Assembly (NCBI RefSeq): GCF_001677475.2
Contig: NZ_CP015229.1
DNA length: 64,000 nucleotides
Strand: one strand, 5' to 3'
Source of the DNA: Escherichia coli
GTDB taxonomy: Bacteria > Pseudomonadota > Gammaproteobacteria > Enterobacterales > Enterobacteriaceae
Both the position numbers and the translations under genes were made by a program. Below the pieces are notes generated by a model. It saw only the letters and a list, made by a program, of their open reading frames with translations. It did no database searches and was not told where the DNA came from. Below, in pieces: positions 7,074 to 57,081 of this stretch; position 1 is the first letter of the stretch; each line of letters opens with the position of its first letter.

Positions 7074-8018
7074 TTACGCCGGGTATTCAACCACCAGGCG
7101 ACGAGGCGCAACGCGGCCTTCATCGTCAATTTCGCCCATACCGATAAATTTGCCGTTCTCACCTTCCGTGACGCGAACCAGTCCTTCCAGCGGCGCACCG
7201 GATGTACGAACCGGGTTACCATTTTTGAAGTAAACAGAAGACGTTAACGGAAGATTCACCACCGGATAGTCCGAAGCTGGACTGTCCATTGGCATCAGTA
7301 ATGGATCAAGTAACTCCGCAGCCGGAATATCCTGCTGTTCAGCTTGTTCGACCAGTTCACGCAGATGTTCCAGGGTCACCATCCGTTCAACTGGATATTT
7401 ACTTACCGCCAGACGACGCAGGTAAATAACATGCGCGCCACAACCGAGTTTTTCACCCAGGTCGTCAATGATAGTGCGGATATAAGTACCTTTTGAGCAG
7501 TGAATTTCCAGCTCCAGCTCATTGCCTTCATGGCGAATAAACAGCAATTCATAAACGGTAATCGGACGCGCTTCACGCGGAACTTCAATGCCCTGACGCG
7601 CGTATTCGTACAGTTTTTTGCCCTGATATTTCAGTGCTGAATACATCGAAGGGATCTGTTCGATATCGCCACGGAAGGTATCCAGCGCCGCCGCCAGTTG
7701 CTCTGCACTAAAGGTTACCGGACGTTCTTCAACGATTTGTCCATCGGCATCGGAAGTATCGGTACGCTGTCCAAGACGCGCAATCACCCGATAGCGTTTG
7801 TCGGAGTCCAGCAGATACTGGGAAAACTTCGTCGCTTCCCCGAGGCAAATCGGCAACATGCCAGTTGCCAGCGGGTCCAGCGCGCCGGTGTGTCCGGCAC
7901 GGTTGGCGTTATATATACGTTTCACTTTTTGCAGCGCATCGTTGCTGGACATACCCTGCGGTTTATCCAGCAACAAAACGCCGTTAATGTCGCGACCGCG
8001 ACGACGAGGACGACTCAT
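7074..8018 (-). CDS. truB: tRNA pseudouridine-55 synthase TruB (314 aa)
   Basis: Translation [53 protein letters not shown]... (TruB catalytic Asp motif). Confidence 0.95.
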
Positions 8019-8419
8019 TAGTCCTCCTTGCTGTCGTCCGGGTTAACACGACGTTCTTCGTCATGTTTGACCACGCTGGTCACCAGGTTTGACATGCGCA
8101 TCCCTTCAACCAGCGAGTTGTCGTAGAAGAAGGTCAGTTCCGGCACGATACGCAGGCGCATCGCTTTCCCCAGCAGGCTGCGGATGAAACCAGAAGCTTC
8201 CTGCAACGCTTTGATGCCCGCTTTAACCGCGTCTTCATCTTTGTCGTTGAGGAATGTCACATATACTTTGGCATACGCCAGGTCGCGAGACATTTCGACA
8301 CCGGAAACGGTGGTCATCATGCCCAGGCGAGGATCTTTAATTTCACGCTGCAGGATGAGAGCGATCTCTTTTTGCATTTCCTGCGCTACGCGCTGCGGGC
8401 GACCAAATTCTTTCGCCAT
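8018..8419 (-). CDS. rbfA: Ribosome-binding factor A RbfA (133 aa)
   Basis: Translation [56 protein letters not shown]...; ATG is the complement of 8417..8419; track ORF over-extended by 6 codons. Confidence 0.93.
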
Positions 8420-8445
8420 AATAAATTCTCCTGACAAAAAAGGGG

Positions 8446-8468
8446 CTGTTAGCCCCTTTTTAAAATTA
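8446..8468 (-). terminator. Hairpin plus U-tract between infB and rbfA (possible internal attenuator/terminator)
   Basis: Minus strand reads aggggctaacagcccct followed by ttttttt. Confidence 0.45.
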
Positions 8469-8505
8469 ATTTCAGGTGGAAGGGCTGTTCACGTTGGCCT
8501 GATAA

Positions 8506-8569
8506 GACGCGCCAGCGTCGCATCAGGCAATCCATGCCGGATGCGGCGTAAACGCCTTATCCCGCATGG
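8506..8569. repeat. REP/BIME-type palindromic units in the infB-rbfA spacer
   Basis: gcctgataagacgcgccagcgtcgcatcaggc and gccggatgcggcgtaaacgccttatcccgcatgg resemble E. coli REP consensus. Confidence 0.6.
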
Positions 8570-8582
8570 AACCCTAAAAACC

Positions 8583-11255
8583 TTAAGCGATGGTACGTTG
8601 GATTTCGATGATTTCGAATACTTCGATCACATCGCCAGTGCGGACGTCGTTGTAGTTCTTAACGCCGATACCACATTCCATACCGTTACGGACTTCGTTA
8701 ACGTCATCTTTGAAGCGGCGCAGGGACTCCAGCTCGCCTTCGTAGATAACCACGTTGTCGCGCAGAACGCGGATCGGGTTGTGACGTTTAACCACACCTT
8801 CGGTAACCATACAACCTGCGATGGCACCAAATTTCGGTGATTTGAATACGTCACGAACTTCCGCCAGACCGATAATCTGTTGTTTCAGTTCCGGAGACAG
8901 CATACCGCTCATTGCCGCTTTCACTTCGTCGATCAGGTTATAGATGACGGAGTAGTAACGCAGATCCAGGCTTTCCGCTTCAATCACTTTACGTGCAGAG
9001 GCATCAGCACGTACGTTGAAGCCAACCAGGATGGCGTTGGACGCCGCAGCCAGGGTAGCGTCGGTTTCGGTGATACCACCTACGCCAGAACCGATGATCT
9101 TCACTTTAACTTCGTCAGTAGACAGTTTCAGCAAGGAGTCGGAGATAGCTTCCACAGAACCCTGTACGTCTGCCTTCAGGACGATATTCACTTCGTGAAC
9201 TTCGCCTTCGGTCATGTTGGCGAACATGTTCTCGAGTTTAGATTTCTGCTGACGCGCCAGTTTAACTTCGCGGAATTTACCCTGACGATAGAGTGCAACT
9301 TCACGCGCTTTCTTCTCGTCACGTACAACGGTAACTTCATCACCCGCAGCCGGAACGCCGGACAGGCCGAGGATTTCCACCGGAATGGACGGACCCGCTT
9401 CCAGCACTTCCTGACCCAGTTCGTTACGCATCGCACGAACACGACCGTATTCGAAGCCACACAGAACGATATCGCCCTTGTGCAGAGTACCTTCACGTAC
9501 CAGAACGGTAGCAACCGGACCACGACCTTTATCGAGGAAGGATTCGATAACCGCACCGCTCGCCATGCCTTTACGTACCGCTTTCAGTTCCAGAACTTCC
9601 GCCTGCAGCAGGATAGCGTCCAGCAGCTCATCGATACCAGTACCCGCTTTCGCAGACACATGTACGAACTGGCTTTCACCGCCCCACTCTTCCGGCAGGA
9701 TGCCGTACTGGGAGAGTTCGTTCTTAACGCGATCCGGATCGGCTTCTGGTTTATCGATCTTGTTCACTGCAACGACCACCGGAACCTGCGCCGCTTTCGC
9801 GTGCTGGATTGCTTCGATGGTCTGCGGCATTACGCCGTCGTCGGCAGCAACAACCAGGACTACGATGTCCGTTGCCTGCGCACCACGAGCACGCATTGAA
9901 GTAAACGCGGCGTGCCCCGGGGTGTCCAGGAAGGTGATCATGCCGTTTTCAGTTTCAACGTGGTATGCACCAATGTGCTGGGTAATGCCGCCCGCTTCGC
10001 CAGAGGCCACTTTCGTTGAACGAATGTAGTCCAGCAGAGAGGTTTTACCGTGGTCAACGTGACCCATGATGGTCACAACCGGCGCGCGCGGTTCAGCCGC
10101 TGCCCCCGTGTCACGGTCGCTCATTACCGCTTCTTCCAGCTCGTTTTCACGACGCAGGATAACTTTGTGGCCCATCTCTTCAGCAACCAGCTGTGCGGTT
10201 TCCTGATCGATAACCTGGTTGATGGTTGCCATTGCGCCCAGTTTCATCATCGCTTTGATGACCTGAGAGCCTTTAACAGCCATCTTGTTCGCCAGTTCGC
10301 CAACGGTGATGGTTTCGCCGATCACAACGTCACGGTTAACGGCCTGAGCAGGCTTCTGGAAGCCTTGCTGCAGCGAAGAACCTTTACGTTTTCCGCCTTT
10401 ACCGCCACGTACTGCTGCGCGTGCTTCTTCACGATCAGCTTTTGATTCAGCGTGTTTGTTGCCTTTCTTCGGACGCGCAGCTTTCGCGTTACGACCACGG
10501 CCACGGCCGCCTTCGACTTCACGATCGCTTTCGTCTTCTGCCTGGCGAGCATGTTGAGAAGTAGTGACGTGATAATCGCTGGAATCTTCAGTCGGTTCCG
10601 CGTTATCAGTCCATTTGTTTTCTTCCGCCATACGACGTGCTTCTTCAGCAACGCGACGTGCTTCTTCTTCGAGTTTACGACGCGCTTCTTCTTCGGCTTT
10701 ACGCTTGAGCTCTGCAGCTTCCTGCTCACGGCGGGCTTTTTCAGCCTGGGCGTTTTTAGTCATATCGTCTTGTTGATTGCTCACTTTGTCTTTTTCCGCA
10801 GCTTCACGTTTCGCTTGTTCAGCAGCTTCACGCTTAGCTTGTTCTGCGGCCTCACGTTCAGCTTTTTGTTGCGCCTCGCGTTTAGCCGATTCTTCTGCCT
10901 CACGACGGGCTTGCTCTTCCGCTTCACGCTGCGCTTGCTCTTCCGCTGCAAGGCGTTCAGCCTCTTGCGGATCGCGTTTCACAAAGGTGCGTTTCTTGCG
11001 GACTTCGATTTGTACCGATTTGCTTTTTCCACCGGTACCAGGAATGTTAAGGGTGCTGCGTGTTTTACGTTGCAGCGTCAATTTGTCCGGGCCTGAATTT
11101 TTCTGATTCAGGTGGTCAATCAAAGTCTGTTTCTCTTGTGCGGACACAGAGTCGTCAGCAGACTTCCGGATACCTGCATCAGCAAATTGCTGTACCAGGC
11201 GTTCCACGGAGGTCTGTCGCTCTGCGGCCAGCGTTTTAATCGTTACATCTGTCAT
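8583..11255 (-). CDS. infB: Translation initiation factor IF-2 (890 aa, alpha form)
   Basis: Translation [31 protein letters not shown]... with G-domain ([21 protein letters not shown]); in-frame internal starts at codon 158 (GTG) and 165 (ATG) are present. Confidence 0.97.
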
Positions 11256-48215: not shown

Positions 48216-49145
48216 CTACTCCGTTGGAGGTAGCCACGGACGTCCCAGCGCCGATCCCTGTACGCCATGTTCATTCAGATAGCGATCCAGCTCGACCATT
48301 CCCGTCCATCGATTTTCGCACCACAGAGGAGCAAGCAGCGTCGGGCGACGGGCGCTGGCGGAAATGCGGTGGTAGATCACTTCCGGTGGCGTATGGCGAA
48401 TCATTTCTCCGGCAGTGAGCGTGTAATCCTCCAGTTCAATACCGTTCAAACGCCCCGCTTCCCAGGCTTTCGCCATAATGCTGCCTTTCACAATATGCAG
48501 CGGATGCAGCTTTATGCCGTCCACGCCGGTTTCAACCACTCGCTCCAGCGTTTGTAAACATTCAGCCTGCCCTTCGCCAGGCAGGCCGACAATTAAGTGG
48601 GAACACACCTTCAGCCCGCGCTGACGTGCCAGCTGGGTTGTACGCTGATAACAGGCAAAATCATGGCCGCGGTTGATGCGATGCAGTGTTTTGTCGTGGG
48701 CGGTTTGTAGCCCCAGCTCCAGCCACACTTCGTAACCCTGGTCCTTATATTCGCAAAGCAGATCCAGCACCGCATCCGGCACGCAGTCCGGGCGGGTACC
48801 AACACACAAACCGACAATATTGGCCTGGCTCACCGCCTGCTGATACATAGAACGCAGCACCTGAACTTCCGCAAAGGTGCTGGTATACGCCTGAAAGTAG
48901 GCCAGATAGCGTTTAGCGCGGTTAACTAAATTCGCCTGGTGCGCCAGTTGCTCGGCAATGGAACGATGCTGCTGCGCTTCATCGGCAAACGAGGCCACAT
49001 TACAGAATGTGCAGCCACCACGCCCGATGGTACCGTCACGGTTAGGGCAGCTAAAACCGCCGTGCAGCGTCAGCTTATGCACCTTTTGCCCATAACGACG
49101 GGTGAGATCACCACCAAACATATTGACTAATTTCTGTAACTGCAT
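48216..49145 (-). CDS. yhcC: Radical-SAM family protein YhcC (309 aa)
   Basis: Translation MQLQKLVNMFGGDLTRRYGQKVHKLTLHGGFSCPNRDGTIGRGGCTFCNVASF... (CxxxCxxC-like Cys cluster). Track ORF starts at an upstream TTG. Confidence 0.9.
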   Translation of the reverse strand: MQLQKLVNMFGGDLTRRYGQKVHKLTLHGGFSCPNRDGTIGRGGCTFCNVASFADEAQQHRSIAEQLAHQANLVNRAKRYLAYFQAYTSTFAEVQVLRSMYQQAVSQANIVGLCVGTRPDCVPDAVLDLLCEYKDQGYEVWLELGLQTAHDKTLHRINRGHDFACYQRTTQLARQRGLKVCSHLIVGLPGEGQAECLQTLERVVETGVDGIKLHPLHIVKGSIMAKAWEAGRLNGIELEDYTLTAGEMIRHTPPEVIYHRISASARRPTLLAPLWCENRWTGMVELDRYLNEHGVQGSALGRPWLPPTE

Positions 49146-49819
49146 AATCTGATAGACCGCGCCTTGAAAAGAGGCCAAAGCCTGCCATTTTTAGCTCAAT
49201 TCGGCGATGACCTGGATCAATCGTCCCGGCCTGCTTTTATCAACTGCATAATCAATCAAAATTACCGAAATTTCATGCATAATCACATAAATCACTTTTG
49301 CTTATCTTGTGTCAGATTTTTTTATCTCCTTATGGATTTTAGGCAAAAACAGTAGCATGAAACGTCATTACCAATTAAGGCAGTATAAAATGCTGGCTTT
49401 CTCGTCAGTTCAAGGCAGGATAAGGGTTAACACGCCTTTATGACAGTCAGGAATTGGCTGTTTCTCTAACGACGCCCCTTTTAGCCTTAATTAGAAAATC
49501 TATTTTAATTTCAGTCAATTAATAAAGAATTTTGCGCTAAAGCACATTTCTGTACCAATAAGCTTGCCATTTGACCTGTATCAGCTTTCCCGATAAGTTG
49601 GAAATCCGCTGGAAGCTTTCTGGATGAGCAGCCTGCTCATCATATTTATGCAGTAATTGAGATCCCCTCTTCACCGTATTAACCGATGCGAAAAGGACAA
49701 CAAGGGGGCGAATGCGAGGCGCGCGTATGACACGCAAACCCCGTCGCCATGCTCTTTCTGTGCCCGTGCGCAGCGGTTCGGAAGTGGGGTTCCCGCAGAG
49801 CCTGGGGGAGGTTCACGAT

Positions 49820-55711: not shown

Positions 55712-55894
55712 GCTCTGTCCCAGCGCCGCCTCCTCAGAAAAGAGTCGGCGCTGAAATTCTCCTTTCTTTCTGGAAAGCGCCTCGCATAATCTGAAGAAAA
55801 CCAATGTAATACGCTCATCTGGATTGTTACCGGTAGATGCCCGGCGTATAGCTGATTCCATTATTCAACGCAGCGCCATATAAAGGGACAGATA

Positions 55895-57022
55895 ATGGAA
55901 TCGCTCTCAGAGAGAACCTCAACAGGCTACCAGCAAATCCACGACGGTATTATTCATCTGGTCGATAGCGCACGGACGGAAACGGTACGTAGCGTTAACG
56001 CGCTGATGACCGCGACATACTGGGAAATTGGCCGACGAATTGTCGAATTTGAACAAGGTGGCGAGGCCAGGGCTGCGTATGGTGCGCAGCTAATCAAGCG
56101 ACTATCAAAGGATTTAAGTCTAAGGTATAAGCGTGGGTTCTCTGCAAAAAACTTACGCCAAATGAGGCTTTTTTACCTCTTTTTTCAACATGTTGAAATT
56201 CGCCAGACAGTGTCTGGCGAATTAACACCATTGGGAATTCCGCAGACACCATCTGCAGAATTCCCATCGGCAAAGATTTGGCAGACGCTGTCTGCCAAAT
56301 CTTTCCCCCTGCCCTGGTCCACCTACGTCCGTTTACTTTCCGTTAAAAACGCTGACGCCCGCAGCTTTTATGAAAAAGAGACGCTCCGCTGTGGCTAGTC
56401 TGTTCGCCAGCTAGAACGGCAAATTGCGACCCAATTTTATGAGCGAACACTACTGTCACATGACAAATCAGCCATGCTGCAACAACATGCTCCTGCCGAG
56501 ACGCATATTCTTCCGCAACAGGCGATACGCGATCCTTTTGTGCTTGAATTTCTGGAGTTGAAAGATGAATACTCAGAATCCGATTTTGAGGAGGCGCTGA
56601 TCAACCACCTGATGGATTTCATGCTGGAACTTGGGGATGATTTTGCCTTTGTTGGTCGACAGCGAAGGTTACGCATTGATGACAACTGGTTTCGTGTCGA
56701 TCTGCTGTTTTTCCACCGCCGTTTACGCTGCCTGCTAATCGTCGATCTAAAAGTGGGCAAATTCAGCTATAGCGATGCCGGACAGATGAATATGTATCTC
56801 AACTACGCCAAAGAGCACTGGACGCTACCGGATGAAAATCCGCCCATCGGTCTGGTTCTCTGTGCAGAGAAAGGAGTCGGAGAAGCGCATTATGCACTGG
56901 CTGGTTTGCCTAACACCGTTCTGGCGAGTGAATATAAGATGCAACTACCTGATGAAAAACGACTCGCGGATGAACTCGTTCGAACACAGGCGGTGTTAGA
57001 GGAAGGCTATAGACGCCGTTAA
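55895..57022 (+). pseudogene. yhcG: yhcG (DUF1016, PD-(D/E)xK nuclease-fold family) interrupted by an in-frame TAG at 56396..56398
   Basis: Track fragments 55895..56398 and 56474..57022 share one frame; read-through gives a 375-codon ORF. C-terminal part carries a D...DxK-like motif (VDLLFF...IVDLKVGK). Confidence 0.8.
56201..56304. repeat. Three adjacent palindromes with a CAGAC..GTCTG core inside yhcG (a fourth lies at 57038..57062 after the stop)
   Basis: cgCCAGACAgTGTCTGGcg (56201..56219); gggaattccGCAGACaccatCTGCAGaattccc (56233..56265, one mismatch); aaagatttgGCAGACgctGTCTGCcaaatcttt (56272..56304, perfect 15-bp arms). Confidence 0.7.
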
Positions 57023-57081
57023 TTTCAGCGGTTTCGAATTCTCCAGACACTGTCTGGAGAATCTTTAAAACGAACTAAATT

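Follow-up and report, generated by a model that had tools for sequence, protein, structure and literature searches.

An amber codon in Escherichia coli yhcG, very probably a recent loss of function in one rare clone, and palindromic units in the coding sequence of the DUF1016 family

A gene frame that is cut by one stop codon can be understood in several ways: as a gene that was lost recently, as one that is still decoded through the stop, or as two shorter genes that are made separately. The yhcG locus in a 64-kb stretch of an Escherichia coli genome (in the following, the window) raises this question. Here, positions 55895-57022 on the + strand form a single frame of 375 sense positions with a terminal TAA, and translation finds one internal stop, at codon 168. 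This confirms the first-pass annotation, which had described a 375-codon read-through ORF with the TAG at 56396-56398 as its sole interruption; the two same-frame ORFs that it had named, 55895-56398 and 56474-57022, are matched exactly by the ORF list (167 aa and 182 aa). The premature amber codon (56396-56398, + strand) stands in the context cgc tgt ggc TAG tct gtt, and it corresponds to Trp168, with TGG changed to TAG by a G>A at 56397, which is gene position 503. Upstream, a Shine-Dalgarno-like AAGGGA (55883-55888) is followed by the yhcG ATG at 55895-55897, both on the + strand, with an anti-SD duplex of -5.0 kcal/mol. The 5' fragment (55895-56398, + strand) comprises codons 1-167 plus the TAG and holds most of the DUF1016_N domain, minus its last helices. 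The remainder of the frame (56399-57022, + strand) comprises codons 169-375 plus the TAA and holds the whole YhcG_C domain intact; inside this remainder lies the ORF from Met194 (56474-57022, + strand, 182 aa), in the same frame as the 5' ORF.

The earlier identification of the gene as yhcG, a member of the DUF1016 family, agrees with both the locus and the Pfam domains. gltB-gltD lie upstream, and nanQ(yhcH)-nanK-nanE-nanT-nanA-nanR lie downstream on the opposite strand; in the window gltD is directly upstream of yhcG, in the place that yhcE/yhcF take in K-12-type genomes. In the read-through protein, DUF1016_N (PF17761) covers residues 19-184 (E = 1.1e-41) and YhcG_C (PF06250) residues 208-360 (E = 2.9e-56), and the 167-aa product is without roughly the last 17 residues of DUF1016_N. 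An NCBIfam search assigned no family to YhcG, and a PDB sequence search gave no match. The catalytic residues are present as E232 (56588-56590), D269 (56699-56701, in RVDLLFF) and D284-x-K286 (56744-56752, in IVDLK), and E232, D269, D284 and K286 fall in conserved columns of the family alignment. RVDLLFF and IVDLK are both 3' of the TAG, so that the PD-(D/E)xK motif does lie wholly downstream of the stop, as had been claimed. Trp168 itself is part of the motif WSVRxLxRQI and is at least 90% conserved in an alignment of 37 diverse family members. In an AlphaFold model of YhcG (mean pLDDT 77, pTM 0.54) the residue lies in between two helices (153-166 and 170-178), where pLDDT is about 90, and going by this model, termination at codon 168 removes the last N-domain helices (170-196) and the whole nuclease domain. 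All 120 best homologs of YhcG, as well as diverse members of the family, have both domains fused in one protein; in the window the frame that holds the two domains is broken by the TAG at codon 168.

As for its function, YhcG is a predicted NucS-like nuclease that possibly acts against phages. A prediction published in 2005 placed the C domain among the PD-(D/E)xK nucleases, with DUF91/NucS and the YraN-like Holliday-junction resolvases as relatives (PMC1189080). Over almost its full length (residues 8-370) YhcG matches the HMM of the PADLOC candidate PDC-S02 (E = 1.1e-135), and no experimental validation of PDC-S02 was found in the papers citing it. Distant homologs sit within restriction-modification (R-M) operons, and DUF1016 genes are enriched beside inversion-targeted R-M genes with an odds ratio of 17 (PMC9881135). 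The idea that DUF1016 genes are themselves targets of programmed inversion was rejected, as they are merely neighbours of such targets (PMC9881135). Transcription of yhcG in K-12 has been reported (PMC7967276).

The intact orthologs show what the stop has replaced. Comparison across it, which the first-pass annotation had recommended, finds a Trp168 sense codon: TGG stands at codon 168 in the intact allele of ET350 and in the alleles of K-12-like strains, O157:H7 and E1246. Among 5,426 complete RefSeq E. coli genomes the nearest intact allele is that of strain ET350 (98.6% nucleotide identity), and its TGG at this position bears out the proposal that a single G>A in a Trp codon made the stop. 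The yhcG of the window differs from the ET350 allele by the stop, 10 synonymous codons and 1 non-synonymous codon (R374L); that, the stop aside, there is only one non-synonymous difference beside 10 synonymous ones points to purifying selection until recently. Of the complete E. coli genomes in which this stretch is present, 0 of 3,261 have an exact match to an 81-mer centred on the TAG, and the best matches are one mismatch off. The identical TAG gene is, on the other hand, present on six contigs from separate NCBI and Logan assemblies. Carriers include NCBI GCA_037967675.1 and GCA_018683435.1 and Logan SRR24464887, ERR3309126 and ERR10434813, with at least six other contigs altogether, and where a 16-kb comparison was made, they match the window at 99.93-100% identity and show no difference at all in yhcG. 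About 50 recorded contigs encode exactly the 167-aa product, always with the 182-aa fragment after it. For window positions 31000-55800 the best identity of a complete genome is 98.7% over 24.8 kb, and the clone is unrepresented among complete genomes. The absence of the TAG from 3,261 complete genomes, taken together with the near-identical independent carriers, indicates that it marks one young and rare clone.

Judged from these sequence comparisons, the TAG allele is very probably a recent, lineage-specific loss of function, i.e. a nonsense pseudogene of yhcG in one rare clone. The stop is located at an orthologous sense codon, in a young lineage, and the 64-kb window contains no compensating features. 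Among the options that the first-pass annotation had put forward, that of a recent pseudogene is supported by an allele that is clonal and rare, by a coding sequence that is near-intact and by many independent lesions in the species. A G>A transition would have turned the conserved Trp168 codon TGG into TAG, a step that can be read from the alignment, and ribosomes coming from 55895 would since then terminate at 56398 and release a 167-residue fragment. This fragment would lack the last DUF1016_N helices and the entire NucS-like PD-(D/E)xK domain. The 207 codons downstream would be essentially untranslated, since the next in-frame ATG is 75 nt off and without a ribosome-binding site, and they would still be intact because there was too little time for more decay. 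As yhcG would be a dispensable accessory gene for a candidate anti-phage nuclease, and one that has been repeatedly inactivated in E. coli lineages, its loss would be tolerated or even, possibly, favoured. What runs counter to the pseudogene reading is that the C-terminal coding sequence and the catalytic residues are fully intact, with no added decay in the clone, so that a low level of functional product is conceivable on sequence alone. Because the clone is too young and its carriers are identical in yhcG, the evolution of the sequence after the stop fits a dead gene and an attenuated gene alike.

There are many independent lesions in yhcG, several of them at Trp codons and internal repeats. 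Trp codons can become a stop by either of two transitions and are thus the codons most easily lost by transition. On three contigs (L003, L005 and L006) codon 168 is TGA, which gives the same 167-aa product, and the flanks of these contigs are just 96.8-97.5% identical to the window. Among the complete genomes there are intact alleles from which the TGA alleles of L003 and L006 each differ by one base in 1,128 (99.9% identity), and the TGA 81-mer is found in 0 of the 3,261 complete genomes with this stretch. Being one step from intact alleles, the TGA alleles point to independent, recent events on two other backgrounds; an old, maintained split gene was rejected as an explanation for them for the same reason. 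A 140-aa product that stops right before Trp141 is present on 95 contigs. In O157:H7, yhcG has an 80-bp deletion and is annotated as 'frameshifted', strain E70 carries two IS1 insertions in the gene, and in MB07011-type genomes its 3' part has undergone a deletion-replacement, where the 101-aa 'transposase' that takes its place has no Pfam or NCBIfam match. Additional frameshifted forms retain TGG at codon 168. At the level of the species, 3,347 of the 5,426 complete genomes have at least 80% of the locus, and megablast finds no match in 959. Similar observations can be found in the literature: the length polymorphism of yhcG in O157:H7 is used in LSPA-6 typing (PMC3514354), in S. Typhimurium DT2 the gene has become a lineage-specific pseudogene, and an SL1344 mutant without yhcG had no competitive defect in mice (PMC3760250).

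It is conceivable that the repeated stops at codon 168 were selected because they give one specific truncated or leaky form, and are not plain losses. In an account of this kind, which we consider unlikely, the gene is attenuated and not dead: low read-through, owing to near-cognate decoding or to a suppressor tRNA that is encoded outside the window, would keep a trace of full-length nuclease, and stops at Trp168 would be recurrently selected as a means of lowering the level of a defence nuclease that is costly or toxic. The stop has arisen at this codon at least three times (TAG once, TGA on two backgrounds), but this recurrence is at least partly, and arguably largely, a matter of ascertainment, since a look-up by the exact 167-aa product finds stops at that codon alone, and lesions that cannot leak (the 80-bp frameshift, the IS1 insertions, the deletion) are at least equally common. 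Of the stop codons, UGA leaks most in E. coli; it is read by tRNA-Trp, so that the wild-type residue would be put back. For UAG, wild-type E. coli has very low read-through, and the common suppressors insert Gln, Tyr, Ser or Leu; the residue placed at this nearly invariant Trp would mainly be Gln or Tyr. The tRNAs within the 64-kb window are just tRNA-Met(CAT) and tRNA-Leu(GAG), none of them a suppressor, and the earlier suggestion that the gene is read through by an amber suppressor finds no support in the window or in the orthologs, from which the stop is absent. The attenuated gene would also profit from the intact frame downstream of the stop and from the match of the YhcG family to a candidate defence system, as defence genes are often costly to fitness. 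A programmed read-through stop would be conserved in orthologs, whereas TAG and TGA each occur in 0 of 3,261; both are absent from the 5,426 complete genomes, each is one step from an intact allele, and none persisted.

It is very unlikely that the locus is a functional split gene, in which two proteins, the N fragment of 167 aa and a nuclease domain of 182 aa that starts at Met194, are produced and act separately or in a complex. The Met194 fragment does hold the whole YhcG_C (208-360) with every catalytic residue, and gene callers annotate its ORF in every carrier, but the ATG at 56474 is 75 nt past the stop, which exceeds the reach of termination-reinitiation coupling. Its anti-SD duplex is +0.7 kcal/mol, i.e. 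there is no Shine-Dalgarno pairing, which is weaker than the gene-wide mean of -2.3 kcal/mol (the yhcG start has -5.0 and gltD -8.4); a start with a ribosome-binding site near the stop, as re-initiation would use, is thus not found at this ATG. No promoter-like site on the + strand was found inside yhcG or 5' of ATG 56474. The stop also cuts through the conserved N-domain helices 170-196, which is no linker position. No natural stand-alone C-domain genes were found: the homologs (the 120 best and the diverse members) are all fused, and of the cluster representatives that start at residue 170, and could be taken for C-only genes, one is cut off by the end of its contig and the other comes from a metagenome contig with a frameshift. 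The gap of 75 nt, the +0.7 kcal/mol and the lack of stand-alone C-domain genes together disfavour re-initiation at Met 56474, another option of the first-pass annotation. Orthologs that end at this point with an independent downstream gene, which it had named as evidence against a broken gene, were not found either, as the apparent C-only proteins are artefacts. Finally, that the TAG is a sequencing or assembly error, with G as the true base at 56397, is hardly credible: it differs by a single base from every complete genome examined, but the identical TAG gene on at least six further contigs from separate projects and assemblies means that the allele is real.

As an event, the amber allele is very probably an ordinary recent gene loss, of little weight by itself: a further case in which a dispensable accessory nuclease gene was lost in a bacterial clone. 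The yhcG of the window should be annotated as one pseudogene rather than as two genes. For the biology of the gene, it adds one observation in favour of selection on yhcG, a PDC-S02 candidate, being weak or fluctuating in E. coli.

Apart from the stop, the E. coli gene contains three tandem units of 39 bp (13 codons) at 56183-56300 on the + strand, each with a palindrome of 25-27 nt that has the core CAGAC-N3-GTCTG. The palindromes are located at 56197-56223, 56236-56262 and 56276-56300 (+ strand). A fourth copy of the unit is found immediately 3' of the stop codon that ends the frame (57023-57062, + strand; palindrome at 57038-57062), and when translated in the yhcG frame it reads FQRFRILQTLSGES. 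The core motif has 3 occurrences in the 64-kb window, all at yhcG, where 0.04 would be expected. The arms vary between the units of yhcG, with self-complementarity kept within each, and the post-stop copy has a compensatory pair relative to other alleles (CTCCAG..CTGGAG in the window vs CTGCAG..CTGCAG). The 131-nt region folds as three hairpins, with z = -11 for the sense RNA and z = -13.5 for the antisense DNA. Units 1-2 encode a loop that is disordered in the AlphaFold model, with a pLDDT of about 40. Structural variation of E. coli yhcG concentrates at the palindromic units: the 80-bp deletion of O157 takes out units 2-3, allele lengths vary by multiples of 13 residues, and the replacement in MB07011 begins exactly at the foot of unit 3. 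The hairpins were also considered as a stimulator of -1 frameshifting, but this was set aside, as the upstream T-run is E. coli-specific and differs from a canonical slippery site.

Palindromes are also found elsewhere in the DUF1016 family. Four distant homologs (35-41% identity) have at least two each, in the same place and with other arm sequences. When a palindrome is defined by arms of at least 9 nt with at most 1 mismatch, 65 of 79 DUF1016 genes from many phyla have at least one, and 28 of the 79 have at least two; the genome scan used the tighter alignment A4, alignment A3 being too diverse. Altogether these 79 genes contain 102 palindromes, where codon shuffles give about 20. Of the palindromes with an assigned position, about 80% are 10-70 residues upstream of the SWSH motif, and the consensus for the family, AATTnGnCAGACAnTGTCTGnCnAATT, is located just upstream of this motif. 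Of 80 units, 67 have their palindrome centred on codon position 1. Counted from the centre, positions 2-12 form Watson-Crick pairs in 84-99%, and positions 6-9 use all four bases. Double-sided changes number 226 vs 70 +/- 6 in shuffles, a count that is biased towards structure, as the units were picked as palindromic.

Two further tests are free of this selection bias. Where the linker reads Q-[T/S]-x-S, its Ser is encoded by TCT 47 times out of 49, vs 17.6% of the Ser codons elsewhere in the same genes, and this includes genomes with 55-64% GC. In units that were anchored by their peptide, the outer arms are 74% complementary, vs 48% for arms from different units. Here G.T and A.C mismatches number 10 and 11, a balance that gives neither an RNA-type wobble signal nor a strand signal; a hairpin on the antisense strand, suggested by an excess of A.C (20 vs 4 G.T) in palindrome-selected units, was rejected, as the excess is gone in the peptide-anchored ones. 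Rfam has no match in this region of the window or in 13 diverse loci, and no description of coding palindromes in DUF1016 genes was found in the searchable literature.

As far as comparison at the sequence level goes, codon choice at these sites reflects a nucleotide-level constraint for intra-strand complementarity. Beyond this, it is possible, if doubtful, that the palindromes have a function as a nucleic-acid element, undescribed so far, which would form a hairpin or cruciform in DNA or a hairpin in RNA and lie inside the coding sequences of these R-M-associated, NucS-like nucleases. Such an element might be a cis-regulatory hairpin, a hairpin or cruciform that serves as substrate or recognition site for the NucS-like nuclease, or a site for self-recognition or recombination. 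If the palindromes are indeed a functional element, it would also make the E. coli locus fragile and contribute to its repeated inactivation. A candidate alternative is a self-perpetuating quasi-palindrome that is tolerated in the disordered loop. The palindromes could outweigh the stop codon in importance, since they offer a testable handle on a widespread R-M-associated nuclease family.

Among known systems, the closest is the intact E. coli YhcG (375 aa; PF17761 + PF06250; COG4804), which shares with the window the locus by nanQ/yhcH, the length, the domains and the E-D-(D/E)xK motif in the read-through translation. The difference is that the window allele has TAG for TGG at codon 168, which cuts the frame inside the N domain. 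The yhcG genes of O157:H7 and S. Typhimurium DT2 are likewise cases of lineage-specific inactivation without evident fitness cost (PMC3514354, PMC3760250), but the O157:H7 lesion is an 80-bp deletion in the repeat region, whereas the window allele comes from another E. coli clone and has a nonsense mutation of one base. At the structural level, the best Foldseek matches of the modelled C domain are NucS/EndoMS (PDB 2vld, 5gke; E = 4e-4 to 6e-4, probability 1.0), over about 120 aligned residues that cover the nuclease core alone, at 13-18% identity and a TM of about 0.25-0.39; this is in line with the prediction of 2005. The nuclease domains of Bax1 and Can2/Card1 are the next matches, and the helical N domain has no solved relative. 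PDC-S02 is a predicted system, and E. coli yhcG lies between gltD and the nan operon, in no recognisable defence island. The palindromes are similar to REP/BIME and to the Rickettsia palindromic elements in that they are short, form hairpins, stand in tandem with varying copy number and can be accommodated by a reading frame. Unlike the dispersed REP-type repeats, those of yhcG are confined to this gene in 64 kb and are off the REP consensus; and unlike both REP/BIME and the Rickettsia elements, the palindromes belong to one protein family and one position, frame-locked across phyla.

Within yhcG, the DUF1016-family predicted nuclease gene that is cut by TAG at codon 168, three tandem 39-bp units occupy window 56183-56300, and each of them carries one frame-locked palindrome of 25-27 nt with the core CAGAC-N3-GTCTG. 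A fourth copy of the unit is found directly 3' of the yhcG stop (window 57023-57062). This element is not confined to E. coli. In a set of 79 DUF1016 genes that spans many phyla, 65 have such a palindromic element at the same position (the distant homolog loci L014-L017 and loci L018-L097 of the wider gene set were also examined), and the arm positions of these palindromes covary. In units whose peptide reads Q-[T/S]-x-S, the serine codon is TCT in 47 of 49 cases, against 17.6% of serine codons elsewhere in the same genes; judged from these sequences, the choice of TCT for serine in the palindromes is forced. An Rfam search with the element gave zero matches, and no description of it was found in the searchable literature.

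A few distant homologs also have a unit-like palindrome 1-8 nt 3' of the stop codon, for example AATTAGTCAGTCAGCGACTGACCAATT and ATTTGTGCAGTTCCTGACTGCACAAAT. One such palindrome is at 1274-1300 of the distant homolog locus L017, and others lie shortly 3' of the DUF1016 stop in loci L022 and L023 of the wider set. In placement they resemble the post-stop copy of E. coli. As a separate observation, some distant DUF1016 homologs lie within restriction-modification operons (L014 1337-6889; L016 354-5773), in the order N6_N4 methylase, DUF1016, ResIII helicase, or Eco57I/MmeI-type methylase, DUF1016. The coding ends of these embedded genes overlap adjoining genes.

The amber codon of the window is not the only stop allele at this tryptophan codon. 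TGA at Trp168 has arisen independently on two further E. coli backgrounds (contigs L003, L005 and L006; gene at 8001-9128), each with a single mismatch to intact yhcG alleles, and 95 contigs carry a 140-aa YhcG product (P0003) that ends just before Trp141. Trp-to-stop changes are therefore recurrent in yhcG.

Over the 24.8 kb of window 31000-55800, none of the 5,426 complete E. coli genomes in RefSeq exceeds 98.7% identity, and the lineage of the source clone is thus unrepresented among them. L004, a contig of the young, rare clone with the TAG allele, shares 99.988% identity with the window. In L004 (322-1251) the gene calls divide yhcC, a neighbouring radical-SAM gene, into two pieces of 205 and 102 aa; the window has it as a single ORF (48216-49178). 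The next gene after gltD in the window is yhcG, with a 183-bp spacer between the two (55712-55894). In K-12-type genomes (L011 1-1629) the region upstream of yhcG instead contains a partial yhcE, yhcF and an IS5 element; the window thus lacks the gltF-yhcADEF block.

Structural changes of yhcG in E. coli tend to fall at the repeat units. In many complete genomes of the MB07011 type, homology ends exactly at the end of unit 3, and the 3' part of the gene, including the post-stop unit, is swapped for ~470 bp of low-GC DNA (in E. coli MB07011 at L002 6601-7070, which corresponds to window 56301-~57080). This DNA encodes a 101-aa ORF annotated as 'transposase', which had no match in Pfam or NCBIfam. 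In O157:H7 (L010, strain 2571), 80 bp with units 2-3 are missing (equivalent to window ~56226-56305), which shifts the frame, and RefSeq labels the gene 'frameshifted'. This deletion is the yhcG length polymorphism of LSPA-6 typing.
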